Shown here piece by piece: positions 26,661 through 44,198 of a DNA stretch of 64,000 nt. Each line of letters starts with the position of its first letter. Position 1 is the stretch's first letter. Location: positions 25,484,001 to 25,548,000 of the forward strand of contig NW_024704742.1 in NCBI RefSeq assembly GCF_018977255.1, read 5' to 3'. This stretch comes from Callorhinchus milii. Lineage: Eukaryota. The notes beneath the pieces were generated by a model. The model worked only from the letters and a program-made list of their open reading frames with translations, had not been told where the DNA came from and did not search any database. Position numbers and translations under genes: made by a program.

Positions 26661-27920
26661 GACACTGTTGACCATTCCAACCTCCTACACCGCTCCTCCT
26701 CTTAGCTCAATCTTCACAGACCTGTCCTTGCCTGGTTTGAATCTTACCTCTCCCACTGTCTCCACTATTGGGACGTCCTCCCGATGTGAAAGGCACGACA
26801 CAAATATAATTTTGTTTTGTTGTTAAATGTGGTGACTGCATTTGTAGGTGAACTCAGCCACCAATTTGCACACAGCAATGTCCCACAAACAGATAGGAGG
26901 TGAGAGATCAATTAATTGGGAGGATTGTTTGCCAAGACATCGGGAGAAACTCCCTTTTCTTGTTCAGTAGTGGCATTTAATCTTTAACGTCTGCTTGAAC
27001 ATGCAGACAGAACCTTGGTTTAACATCGCATCCAAAGGACGCACCTGTGACAATGCAGAACACCCCCAGCACTGCATTGGAGTGAGCCTAGACTATTACT
27101 GAAGCCTTTATTAATGGACTCATTCTATGACAATTCTTTCGACTCAATCTTCACTAATAGAATAATAAAACACAACAAAATTACATTTGTATAGCACCTT
27201 TCACATCGGGAGGATGTCCCAAGGTGTTGGACAATCAGTGTTTCGGACCTGAGCTGGTGGTCGGGATCGGGGAGGGTGGAGGGCAGGGAGGGAAGGAGGG
27301 TGATTGAAAGCACGGTCGAAGAGGAAGGTCTTCAGATGGGTCTTGAAAGAGGCAAAGGAGGGGGCGAGGCGGAGGGACTGCGGGTTGGAGTTCCAGAGGG
27401 TGTGGTCAGAATGGCTTTGAAGGTGAGGACCAGGATCGTGAACTGTAATCTCTGTGCGATGAGAAGCCAGTGGAGTCGGGCGAGGATGGGGATGACAGGG
27501 TCATGGAGCCTGGTGCAGGAGATGACATTGGCTGCAGAGTTCTGGATGATTTGAAGCCTAAGGAGGAAGGAGTTGGTGAGGCTAACAAGTAGAGAGTTAG
27601 CATATTCAAGCCTGAAAGTTATGGAAGCATGTATGAGGTTTCCTGTGGTGTGAGACAATGGCAGCGCTGGGCGATGTTGGGGAGGTAGGGGAAGGCAAAG
27701 CGGGTGATGACGTAGATGTGGGGTAGAAAGGATAGTTGAGGATAATGGACCTCTATATGGCATAAGAACACAAGAAATGCTGGACGAAAATTGACCAAGC
27801 TCCATTTAGTTTGCCTTCCATCTTCTTGGCGATCGCATGCACACATGTTCCAAACTACCTATGTACTATATCTCATAATGTTGTTTCCTAAAAGAAAATT
27901 ATCTAATCTTTGTTTGAAAG
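26661..27920 (-). repeat. Composite cassette copy A (CR1 tail + L2 3' end + spacer + Deu-SINE + inverted L2 piece)
   Basis: Reverse complement of 42420-44078, sharing all internal junctions. Confidence 0.88.
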
Positions 27921-28080
27921 AATCAACACTTCCTGCTTCAACCCTCTCCCTAGGGAGCCTGTTCCACAGGTTCACTATTCTCTCACTGAAATAGTACTTG
28001 TGTAGATTTGTTCTGAATTTACCCCCCTTTAGAATCTTAAAGACAGCAATCATGTCACCTCTCAATCTTTTTTTCCAGTG
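27760..28080 (-). mobile_element. CR1-like LINE 3' fragment
   Basis: RLRGDMIAVFKILKG...FSERIVNLWNRLP...SFKQRLD in ORF 27859..28152. Confidence 0.85.
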
Positions 28081-40707: not shown

Positions 40708-42419
40708 CTGTTGGACGAATGAAGTAAAACACAAATCAGTCTGATTTATCACACATGCTGTTTTTTTCCAAGATGCTTACATGTCAAGTATTTGTTCAAA
40801 TATTCTCAATAGAAATAGTGGAAATGTATCTAATGACTCTATCTTGTTATAGTTCAAACCTTTGCTGTTCAACATTTATGTGGGACAGAATCCCAGGAAG
40901 GAATTGTGCAGGAAACATGATTGAACGATTATTTCAAAACTTTCTCAGGAGGTGAAGGACTGTTCAGCCAGAGGCTTGAGACATTTCATAGCCCATTGCC
41001 TTTAAAATTTAAGATCGCTCAGAATTTTGGAAAAAATTTCATTTCAGTCTTAAATTGACAGCCGTTCTTCCACAGTTCCTTTGAAGAACCGGCTACTCAA
41101 GTTTTTTTGTTCAGTGAAAAGTTTGTATGCTTTAAGGTTATACTGTACCAGCATTCACACTCATTATCCAGCTTAAATACATTATTTATGAAACTGAAAA
41201 CACATCCACGCTACTTCCTTCCGATAAAAACAAGGTAGCTCTGTGAGTACATTCTTGTCACTTAGAGCCCCATGGCCTAGAATTATTCTATTGCTCTTCT
41301 CTCAACTCTTTCCAGTACATCGTCTTTTCTGGAGAACCCTACAAACTGCACACCGACCAGCAATCAATACAAAGTTAATTGGATCACGCTGCTGTTATTA
41401 AGCTTCACACAGACTAGGCTTTCAGCTAATGGTAATCAATCAGAAACAGATCCTTTACCCTGTTTACTAAAAAAAAACCTTCATTGTGTACACATATCCT
41501 GTGCCAATATGCACTCTCCTGCGTACAGGGTCTAATGTCAGATTGATGGCATGGAGTTCAGCAGCGTTACTTGCACTGTGTGGTCAGTGAGGTTTAACTT
41601 CTTTTATCAGTGATTTTGATTTCTGTCAGGAGATTAATTCAGTTTGGTGGACTCGCTCCAGCAAACTGCATGGCTGTTTGGAAAGAATGGGTCTGATGAG
41701 CGAAATCTCGTTATTATACTCCAGGAAAAAAAAGCTGAGTAAGGAGTCAAAGAAAACAAAAGAAATCAATTAAAAATACCGTAGTTTGTTCTATTGAATT
41801 TTTGTCTTGTTTTTCACACAACAGAGGGTTACATAAACTGTACAGCTGTGAGTGGAAGATGTCGCTCCTGTGCATTTAAAAACAGACAAGACTGGCTGGT
41901 GGCTTTTGTCTTTGTGGTGTATTCTAAATAAGACAGTTATCAGAAAAGATATTTGGTAATGATGGGCCACATTGAACTGCATCTGAATTGATTACGATGT
42001 GAAACAGACCCCAGCGGTGGATTTGCTTTATGCCAGGGCTGACTTCGAGCCTGGTGTTCAGTGAGTTCACGCTGGATTTCGGCAGATGCTGGCTCTGTTC
42101 TGACATCAGATTGCCAACATAAATAATATGTTTCAACGTCCTCAAGGACAGAGTGCTAGATTGGCTGACCTTCATGATTTTCTCCAGAGATTAGGACTAC
42201 AGGATGCTCGACAAAGTTATTGTTCCCATAAAATGGAACAAACACTGCGCTGATTTGCCCGCACGGGTCAGAAGGAAAGGTTAATCAAGGAATTAATAGT
42301 GGATAGAAGCAAGAGGGTTTAATTTGGTGCTCAGTTTCTTGTCTTAACGAGACACATAGGATTACGCGCATAAAAGTTGAGAAATCTTTAACAATGACAG
42401 AGGCAAAGTTGATCCATGT

Positions 42420-44198
42420 CTCTTTTCAAACACAGATTAGATAGTTTTCATTTAGGAAATAACATTATAGGTTATAGCACATAGGTAGTTTGGGACATTG
42501 TGTATGCGACCTCTAGGAAGGTGGAAGGCGAACTAGAGAGAACTTGATCTTTTTTTGTCTAGCATTTCTTATGTTCTTATGCCGTATAGAGGTCAATTAC
42601 CCTCAACTATCCTTTCTACCCCACATCCGTGCCATCACCCACTCTGCCTTCCCCCACCTCCACAACATTGCCTGGCTCCGCCATTGTCTCATAGTGCAGG
42701 CCACCGAAACCCTCATACACGCTTTCATAACTTTCAGGCTTGACTTTGCAAACCCCTTGCTTGTCAGCCTCACCAACTCCTCCTTTCGTAGGCTGCAGAT
42801 CATCCAGAACACTGCAGCATGCATCCACACTAGGCTCCGTGACTCTATCATCCCCATCCTCGCCTGACTCCACTGGTTTCCCATCGCACAGAGGATATAG
42901 TTCAAGATCCTGGTCCACACCTTCAAAGCCCTCCATGGCCTCACTCCCCCCTACCTCTGTGACCTTCTAGCAACCTACCAACCTGCCCGCTCCCTCCGCT
43001 CAGCGGGCTTTAGCCTGTTTCATGTCCCCCGTCTCGCCAATCCCACCATTGGCAGACGAGCCTTCAGCCACTCTGCCCCAACCCTCTGAAACTCCATCCC
43101 ACAGTCCCTCCGCCTCGCCCCCTCCCTTGCCTCCTTCATGACCCATCTGAAGACCCTCCTCTTCCACCGTGCTTTCATTCAGCCTCCTTCCCTCCTTGCC
43201 CTCCACCCTCCCCGATCCCGACCCCCCAGCTCAGGTTTAAAATACTGATTGTCCAGCGCCTTGGGACATCCTCCCGATGTAAAAGGTGCTATACTAATGT
43301 AATTTTGTTGTTGTGTTTTATTATTCTATTAGTGAAGATTGAGTCGAACGAACTGTCACAGAATGAGTCCATTAATAAAAGCTTCAGTAATAGTCTAGGC
43401 TCACTCCAATGCAGTGCTGGGGGTGTTATAATAATAATAATAATAATCCTTGCATTGCGCTTTTCACGTCTGGAGGACATCCCAAAGCACTTCACAAAAC
43501 ACACTGTAAAGTGAATTGACTATATATTTGTGGGCGAACGCGGCAGCCAATTGCGCACAGCAATGTCCCACAAACAGTCGTGGATTGAAAATGACCAATT
43601 TATTATTGTTTTTGGTTTTGGAGGGATTATTATTAGGCTCTGTGTGGAGTAAGGAAACTTGCCCAAGGTTTCGCCCTGACCTGCCTGTGTTCTGCATTGT
43701 CACAGGATGCAATGTTAAACCAAGGTTCTGTCTGCCTGTTCAAGTGGACGTTAAAGATTAAATGGCACTACTGAACAAGAAAAGGGAGTTTCTCCCGATG
43801 TCTTGGCAAACAATCCCCCCAATGAATTCATCTCTCACCTCCTGTCTGTTTGTGGGATGTTGCTGTGTGCAAATTGGTGGCTGGGTTCACCTACAAATGC
43901 AGTCAACATTTAACAACAATAAAATAAAATTACATTTGTGTAGTGCCTTTCACATTGGGAGGATGTCCCAATAGTGGAGACGGTGGGAGCGGTAGGATTT
44001 GAATCAGGCAAGGCCAGGTCTGCAAAGGTTGAGCTGAGAGGAGTGATGGTGTAGGAGAATAGATTGGTCGACAGTGTCTAAGCAGCAGAGAGGTCGAGGA
44101 GGACAAGGAGGCAGAGAGAACCCTGGTCACAGATGTTCACAGGAAGGCAAACTAGATGGACACTGGTCTTTCTTCGTTTAGCATTTCTTATGTTCTTT
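42420..44198 (+). repeat. Composite cassette copy B, with an extra SINE (43428-43686) and a terminal short CR1 tail (44120-44198)
   Basis: Inverted match to 26661-27920. Confidence 0.88.
43428..43686 (-). mobile_element. 5'-truncated young tRNA-SINE with GTGTT target-site duplication
   Basis: gtgtt at 43423-27 and 43687-91; single empty site (aacac 27059-63) in copy A. Confidence 0.9.

Follow-up and report, generated by a model that had tools for sequence, protein, structure and literature searches.

An inverted pair of nested repeat cassettes in introns of two convergent elephant shark (Callorhinchus milii) genes

Host genes and the inverted pair

The window analysed here, 64,000 nucleotides of Callorhinchus milii (contig NW_024704742.1, forward strand), contains two convergent genes. 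One is a calcyon-family (NSG1-like) gene with exons at 12167–12283, 31155–31265 (+) and 36926–37129; its phase-0 intron at 12284–31154 is flanked by exons matching Pfam Calcyon positions 44–82 and 83–119. The other, on the minus strand, we take to be STX18-like, a name for which database searches returned no support; its last coding exon (40614–40706, -) and the preceding exon (45938–46018) are spliced across another phase-0 intron. Both introns lie directly before an exon with a hydrophobic, membrane-anchor-like stretch. Among 120 of the 183 listed frames, Pfam recognised RVT_1 and Calcyon; a weak match to HSP70 was rejected as noise (E 0.008, below cut-off).

Each intron harbours one copy of a repeat cassette, as a sequence-only reading of this DNA had proposed: copy A (26661–27919, +) between the calcyon-family exons, and copy B (42424–44078, -) within the final intron of the STX18-like gene, its left edge uncertain by ~35 nt (42387–42426). 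Self-BLAST of the window joined 26661–27919 to 44078–42424 by three collinear inverted matches (E 1e-139 to 1e-144), and global alignment gave 1096 identical columns of 1238 ungapped ones. The inverted duplicate over a chain of pieces is thus real, with an overall identity of just 88.5%. The copies are spaced 14,504 bp apart, ~1.5 kb was copied, and B continues past the shared segment as far as 44200. Nothing points to a function of the duplicate.

The finer claims of that reading also held: all junctions are common to A and B, including that between CR1 and L2 (1 mismatch in 15 columns), the region around the spacer (27059–27175) has 4 mismatches in 117 columns, and the peptide noticed twice occurs in both copies, as an incidental translation. 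Per-segment identity is lower in the CR1 part than in the core (83% vs 93%), as had been suspected. An assembly artefact as the source of the pair is a practically negligible prospect: the lack of a long read spanning either copy would leave it some room, but 11.5% divergence between the copies, indels confined to one of them and a SINE private to B, with a target duplication of its own, contradict it, and contigs from the same-organism run X15 cross each of B's outer junctions (41832–42454, 2 differences; 44164–44426, 0 differences). Copy B is real in the species. It carries no RNA-editing signature (A>G 23, G>A 30, T>C 27, C>T 18).

Anatomy of the two copies

Copy A is embedded in nested older insertions. 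To its left, a remnant of an old SINE tail (25561–25637, -) was recognised by shuffle tests against four SINE tails, its scores being reached by 0/200, 1/200, 4/200 and 68/200 shuffles; in the same test beside B, 182/200 and 17/200 shuffles reached the score, so that the remnant is found beside A only. An old L2 (25641–26827, +) is inserted into this SINE tail between 7-bp direct repeats (25641–47 and 26821–27) and comprises a 5' piece (~25648–25735), a younger L2, and a reverse-transcriptase piece with tail (26661–26826). The younger L2 (25740–26660, +; RVT_1 E 1e-6) has its own tail, is 87.6% identical to 21983–22264 and sets A's left edge; it probably post-dates the duplication.

The body of the old SINE follows (26827–27094, -; in B 43392–43427 and 43692–43909), devoid of a tRNA-like head and starting ~85 nt into the element seen at 24755–25196. 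Its putative Deu (SacSINE1-CM) label comes from the sequence-only reading and from PMC5499810 rather than from a consensus match. In 248 columns the two copies share a departure from the majority of the other copies in the window 32 times and disagree with each other 12 times, which argues that A and B hold the same SINE insertion. Neither A nor B contains an Rfam tRNA match, and the only two tRNA-like SINE heads in the window lie outside the cassette. Between SINE and L2 sits a unique spacer of host DNA (27095–27163; B 43323–43391), succeeded by an L2 3' end with the end of ORF2, the 3' UTR and the tail (27164–27749, -; B 42593–43322). From this segment A lacks, at 27410/27411, the 139 nt present in B at 42933–43071, close to the ~140 nt first estimated. 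A 5'-truncated CR1-like element (27765–28070, -) closes the series and is common to both copies only over 27765–27919 (B 42424–42577).

Copy B has private changes of its own, a 12-nt deletion and a new SINE, both of them noticed before. This young SINE (43428–43686, -) belongs to a tRNA-headed family, is 5'-truncated, lies between 5-bp target duplications (43423–27 and 43687–91) and is 94.3% identical to 51988–52249, where a tRNA match is found at 52238–52309. Beyond the shared segment B retains another 61 bases of this L2, lost from A (44079–44139, -) and aligning to an L2 at 7359–7478 with 0/200 shuffles as good. These bases adjoin a second, 60-nt CR1 3' tail (44140–44200, +), which forms B's right edge and has no counterpart at A; no L2 sequence was seen beyond this terminus. 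On one strand B therefore reads 5'-truncated CR1, cassette, CR1 3' end. It lacks poly(A), one edge being the CR1 terminus, and shows no clear target-site duplication; a 6-nt T-rich match at its two ends was rejected as such because of its overlap with CR1-homologous bases and with the CR1 terminal repeat. A putative 5-nt microhomology at the tail junction comes from comparison with an L2 paralogue of 68% identity and not from the lost donor bases.

The sequence-only reading had drawn attention to an identical 19-mer in the two CR1 tails bounding B (42560–78 and 44179–97). The 19-mer is present; the special relationship that it seemed to imply did not survive, because three CR1 tails proved equally distant from one another (12/61, 13/60 and 13/60 differences). 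From the sequences compared, the shared 19-mer is just the CR1 terminus, and its interpretation as a long target duplication was rejected on the same equidistance.

Empty site, copy number and divergence

Evidence for an insertion at B came from relatives. Record 17 of relative run X4 aligns to 41823–42361 and then to 44247–44594, the gap between the two alignments being 71 letters long and the corresponding segment of the window 1885, which identifies B as an insertion; both its cassette part and its CR1 tail are absent there. The 71 letters compare with 102–108 expected from the inferred edges of B. In X8 record 31, 144 letters ahead of 44247 remain unaligned. The empty site is seen in one of three relative runs, with one more consistent and one lacking right-flank cover. 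Since the SINE tail remnant, the 7-bp direct repeat and the continuing CR1 occur at A only, A is the donor.

Copy number was judged from summed contig depth, which is an upper bound and not a copy count. In X15 the bin holding the spacer has a depth of 6.03, within the 4.7–7.9 of clean flank bins, whereas repeat bins reach 2e4–5e6 and the adjacent L2-tail bin 3e5; among 32 listed pieces of 335,744, none crosses the core. In the relatives the spacer bin lies at 1.5–2.4 times the flank, a value into which L2 tails spill and which therefore does not decide on the presence of A. In the window, A and B are the only copies to score above shuffled spacers, no third copy doing so (31 vs 32–43), and a 72% match of the spacer region to 51879–51983 was discarded as driven by the L2 tail.

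These depths bear on the suggestion that the cassette is an undescribed composite retroposon, or a 3' transduction mobilised through a CR1 tail, which they do not support as a family. That A and B are two members of one is extremely unlikely, even though they have a chain of junctions in common and B's 3' end is a CR1 tail. A composite family predicts many dispersed copies, whereas the spacer stands at single-copy level (6.03 vs 3e5 for the L2 tail) with two copies in the window. A common 3' end with own target duplications is missing, A having no second CR1 tail and continuing into native nested flanks, and the cassette has no promoter-bearing SINE head. A LINE 3' transduction needs a source able to be transcribed and lying upstream of the DNA it carries, and A's CR1 is a 5'-truncated element of ~300 nt. 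Moreover, 0/7 listed pieces starting at 42599–42625, a small sample, cross the CR1|L2 junction. Our literature search, which was not exhaustive, returned nothing on this locus.

The divergence between A and B is uneven. A low-divergence tract in A (26751–27384; B 43098–43988) has 40 mismatches in 620 columns against 102 in 618 outside (0/500 permutations), and the copies differ by 7% in the core and by 16% in the outer parts (44/629 vs 98/609 mismatches, p 5e-7). The contrast persists at sites not prone to CpG decay (17/348 vs 42/315, p 2e-4) and without the SINE (p 7e-4), and is weaker for transversions alone (p 0.065); GC content is alike (core 0.47, outer 0.46–0.50). The divergence step adjoins A's 139-nt deletion. 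Non-allelic gene conversion between inverted paralogues is a known process, and excess identity confined to a well-delimited tract of two neighbouring inverted copies, beyond what CpG or base composition would give, resembles it; here it would involve non-coding repeat debris. An attempt to polarise the L2 reverse-transcriptase piece (0 vs 14) was dropped, as outgroups aligned to A gave a bias; the symmetrical version gave 63/110 vs 70/170. Of the earlier proposal of a local inverted duplication kept similar by conversion, the duplication is supported, and conversion appears to have been partial, confined to the core.

A rather unlikely alternative, bearing on the conversion step only, is a young duplication (~7%) whose core was never converted and whose outer L2 and CR1 parts either changed at a higher rate or were replaced by sequence from further copies of these large families. 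A value of 7% fits a date after the split from the relative without B, whose flanks differ from the window at 87/856 sites (~10%), and other family copies are 78–83% identical to B in L2 ORF2, where A and B share 83–85%. It would, however, call for acceleration or replacement in three separate segments, belonging to two families, with survival of their junctions, and it sits poorly with the contrast at non-CpG-prone sites, with the similar GC of core and outer parts and with the 13/60 differences between B's two CR1 tails, which fit an older age if they are coeval. The outer divergence of 16% exceeds the ~10% between-species flank divergence (p 0.001), an excess that simple post-split duplication does not predict and that is a remaining tension.

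Origin of copy B and related systems

We consider a single, old, local templated duplication of A the probable explanation. As A's anatomy shows, the cassette was first built there by nested insertions of the old SINE, the neighbouring L2 3' end, the L2 in the SINE tail and the CR1 fragment. A copy of ~1.5 kb of A would then have entered, in reverse orientation, a break in the neighbouring gene's last intron at a distance of 14.5 kb, a direction read from the intact flanks of A, and would have been joined at short microhomology to the 60-nt CR1 tail. In the simplest version a CR1 insertion was under way at the break, and an end may have used nearby A as a template for extension before it was joined; break repair capturing two templates could give the same product. 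Later, A would have lost ~190 nt to the younger L2 and another 139 nt, B would have undergone the 12-nt deletion and gained the young SINE, and conversion may have homogenised ~630 nt of the core. CR1 machinery may have had a role in the single event, B's right edge being exactly a CR1 3' end.

That edge weighs on two further readings. A template switch at the DNA level, or a repair copy of A, without any retrotransposase, is possible at a distinctly lower probability; the second CR1 tail would then have been present in ancestral A and later deleted when the young L2 inserted, or would have inserted separately at B's edge. In its favour, the ~190 nt lost from A coincide precisely with the expected place of the tail, the three tails are as equidistant as independent insertions of one age would be, and B has no clear target duplication, yet an edge that coincides with the CR1 3' terminus, with no L2 beyond, would be a coincidence. 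A one-off retrocopy, in which an antisense or read-through RNA across A ended in a CR1 tail, underwent reverse transcription by CR1 machinery and was inserted at B, is improbable. It would account for the one-strand order of truncated CR1, cassette and CR1 3' end at B, but the second tail is absent at A, A's CR1 is a truncated ~300-nt fragment, and landing <15 kb from the source in ~0.9 Gb of contigs has a chance of ~3e-5 if sites are random (our own estimate).

A duplication of this kind has close relatives. Repair-mediated duplications by proximal DNA capture (Pace et al. 2009, PMC2671141) are described, in the passages of that paper drawn on here, as insertions at one other place with an identifiable donor and an empty orthologous site, opposite orientation occurring among them. 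B shares these traits, with two copies in the window, a spacer depth at single-copy level as an upper bound, native flanks at A and X4 record 17 without B. As A plus a CR1 tail it also resembles the 20 acceptors chimeric for two donors. The confident class of the same passages lies <5 kb apart with at most 619 bp and a distant class extends to 3,424 bp, whereas our pair is 14.5 kb apart with ~1.5 kb copied and exceeds the confident class in distance and length. Such duplications are further recognised by microhomology, filler or deletion where the pieces join and by the absence of a retrotransposition tail; at B there is the putative 5-nt microhomology and no poly(A), with a CR1 terminus as one edge. 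By this analogy, B works like a proximal repair-mediated duplication but falls outside that class. Most inspected interchromosomal cases there were retrocopies. B differs in ending in a LINE 3' terminus, and later conversion is not treated in those passages.

LINE insertions with locally templated extra DNA offer the other comparison. The relevant passages describe them for L1 in cultured cells (PMC11702581) and for L2 in cultured cells, where extra 5' nucleotides from the flanks are several nucleotides long (PMC4245944). B likewise has local sequence on the 5' side of a 5'-truncated LINE tail; unlike them it involves CR1, ~1.5 kb and a source 14.5 kb away, and is deduced from an old fixed event. 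The elephant shark's CmiSINE and SacSINE1-CM, with L2-2_CM, as described in the passages of PMC5499810, match the window in outline and by description only (two SINE age classes, tRNA heads, an L2-like 3' end in common), and those passages describe no composite resembling the cassette.

The pair looks like an ordinary DNA-copying accident of a known kind and not a new mobile element. It offers a well-resolved example of how local inverted duplicates arise in repeat-rich introns, and a caution that LINE tails and common junction chains can mimic a new composite element. A bolder proposal, which we regard as very unlikely, is that a CR1 insertion captured 1.5 kb of neighbouring intron, as DNA or as nascent RNA by second priming, and that a ~16 kb inversion allele may have existed or may segregate; since ectopic recombination seems to have occurred between the two copies, a crossover would invert ~16 kb and swap exons in frame between the genes. 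If the capture were true, locally templated LINE insertion would extend to CR1, at kilobase scale and in a cartilaginous fish, with an insert far larger than the extras described in the passages of PMC11702581 and PMC4245944. If an inversion allele were found, the pair would provide a route to an in-frame swap of membrane-anchor exons between neighbouring genes.

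The inverted pair

A (26661–27919, plus strand) and B (44078–42424, inverted) are transposon debris that was duplicated locally and in inverted orientation, in a real, one-off and old event. Self-comparison of the window returned three collinear inverted matches between them as its top matches, and global alignment revealed 88.5% identity (1096 of 1238 ungapped columns; K2P 0.126). All junctions listed by the sequence-only reading along the chain of L2, SINE, spacer, L2 3′ end and CR1 are common to both copies, and its count of 4 mismatches in 117 columns was exact. The private changes were likewise confirmed: A lacks 139 nt, and B carries a 12-nt deletion and a young SINE with a 5-bp target duplication. 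Both copies also contain a small internal inverted repeat, an L2 tail pair flanking the SINE and spacer; in A these oppositely oriented tails (26768–26826 and 27164–27222) show 87% identity over 54 nt.

Contigs from four public runs were placed on 41823–44822 at 80% likeness (32 of 335,744 contig pieces among the matches listed). In X15, a run from the same organism, contig depth over the bin of the unique spacer (27095–27163 in A, 43323–43391 in B) was 6.03, a depth rather than a copy number, compared with 4.7–7.9 for clean flanks and 2e4 to 5e6 for repeats. Such a spacer depth fits poorly with a dispersed family; no third spacer match above shuffled background was found in the window. The composite retroposon family and 3′ transduction proposed as a second alternative are not supported, as the pair fails the tests of either. 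Nor is it an assembly artefact: contigs of X15 span both outer junctions of B (2 and 0 differences), though this run and the assembly may not be independent of each other.

Other repeats in the window include a nested stack within a CR1-like fragment (51934–52419), where an L2 3′ end is broken by a young full-length tRNA-headed SINE (51982–52313; Rfam tRNA match, 53.5 bits); at 94.3%, this is the nearest sibling of B's SINE. On the plus strand there is also a separate ~1-kb stretch of CR1-like 3′ sequence (19330–20410), whose tail is unlike that of the cassette's CR1. A CR1 3′ fragment (14297–14582) is ~75% like the cassette's CR1 but has a 3′ region with ~119 additional bases, and a 24-bp unit occurs three times within an L2 ORF2 fragment (60353–60424). 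This mix agrees in outline with the available portion of PMC5499810.

Donor and inserted copy

Sequence context identifies A as the donor. Its old SINE body ends at 26827, with the missing tail picking up at 25637–25561; the L2 insertion that broke the SINE is flanked by a 7-bp direct repeat (25641–47 and 26821–27). This remnant matched three of four tested SINE tails (score reached by 0, 1 and 4 of 200 shuffles; 68 of 200 for the fourth), and no comparable tail was detected beside B (182 and 17 of 200 shuffles). CR1 continues to ~28070 in A and stops at 42424 in B. B retains 61 extra bases of old L2 (44079–44139) whose place in A has been taken by a younger L2 bearing a tail of its own, suggesting that the younger L2 arrived after the duplication.

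B is the inserted copy, its site being empty in a relative. One contig of X4, a relative's run with flanks ~90% identical to the window, matches 41823–42361 and then 44247–44594, with 71 letters between versus 1885 in the window. X8, from a relative, is consistent with this (144 unaligned letters ahead of 44247); in X10, also from a relative, the right flank is without contig cover. Deletion of B in the relatives' lineage is a possible alternative to insertion here, but both breakpoints would need to fall near B's edges. Because 71 letters is less than the 102–108 predicted from the assigned boundaries, B's left edge may sit up to ~35 nt further out, where weak similarity was seen. An 8-bp direct repeat just outside this edge (42373–42380 and 42405–42412) could be junction filler or chance.

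Uneven divergence and probable gene conversion

A divergence scan disclosed a low-divergence tract at 26751–27384 (40/620 mismatches vs 102/618 outside; 0/500 permutations). With boundaries then placed at structural landmarks, mismatches numbered 44/629 in the core and 98/609 in the outer parts (p = 5e-7), a difference also found at non-CpG-prone sites (17/348 vs 42/315; p = 2e-4) and after removal of the SINE from the core (32/375; p = 7e-4); transversions alone gave 16 vs 28 (p = 0.065). Of the earlier proposal of a local inverted duplication kept similar by conversion, the duplication stands and the conversion is probable and partial. The divergence step adjoins A's 139-nt deletion, and core divergence (7%) is a little higher than the 5.7% that separates B's young SINE from its sibling, which fits a single conversion of the longest uninterrupted block prior to arrival of that SINE. 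Counting against conversion, outer divergence (16%) is higher than the ~10% by which the flanks differ from those of the relative without B (p = 0.001). Repeat DNA that decays faster, rates that differ between lineages, or outer parts that were overwritten could each account for this excess.

Mechanism and host introns

B terminates in a 60-nt CR1 3′ end (44140–44200). Judging by an L2 paralogue at 7359, this end meets the L2 bases at a 5-nt microhomology. The 19-mer noted in both of B's CR1 tails is identical exactly as given, but no special link follows: the three tails (A, B left and B right) differ pairwise by 12/61, 13/60 and 13/60, so the 19-mer is simply the family terminus. Since the insertion edge is a CR1 terminus and template A lies at a distance of 14.5 kb, the most economical one-step account would be capture of nearby DNA from A, through either CR1 insertion or two-template break repair. 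A plain retrocopy of A is unlikely, its chance of landing that close being ~3e-5 by our own estimate. Template switching at the DNA level alone, with the CR1 tail unrelated, is possible given that A has lost ~190 nt at the informative spot.

The pair works like the repair-mediated duplications in the available part of PMC2671141, including two-donor chimeras, but falls outside that study's under-5-kb criterion and is longer than its proximal cases. A second resemblance is to LINE insertions that carry extra, locally templated DNA, as covered in the accessible parts of PMC11702581 and PMC4245944.

A occupies an intron (12284–31154) between calcyon-family exons 12167–12283 and 31155–31265, which match consecutive Pfam positions (44–82 and 83–119). 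We take this gene to resemble NSG1; its last intron contains a stretch (35251–36500) whose base skew, on reading, is unlike its surroundings. B resides in the last intron (40707–45937) of a convergent minus-strand gene, presumably STX18 as judged from its exons, an identity for which the database search returned no match. No sign of A–B crossover was found, with both genes in normal order and with normal flanks among the contig matches listed. Both introns are phase 0 and directly precede a hydrophobic, membrane-anchor-like exon; were A and B to cross over, ~16 kb would be inverted and these exons traded in frame between the two host genes.
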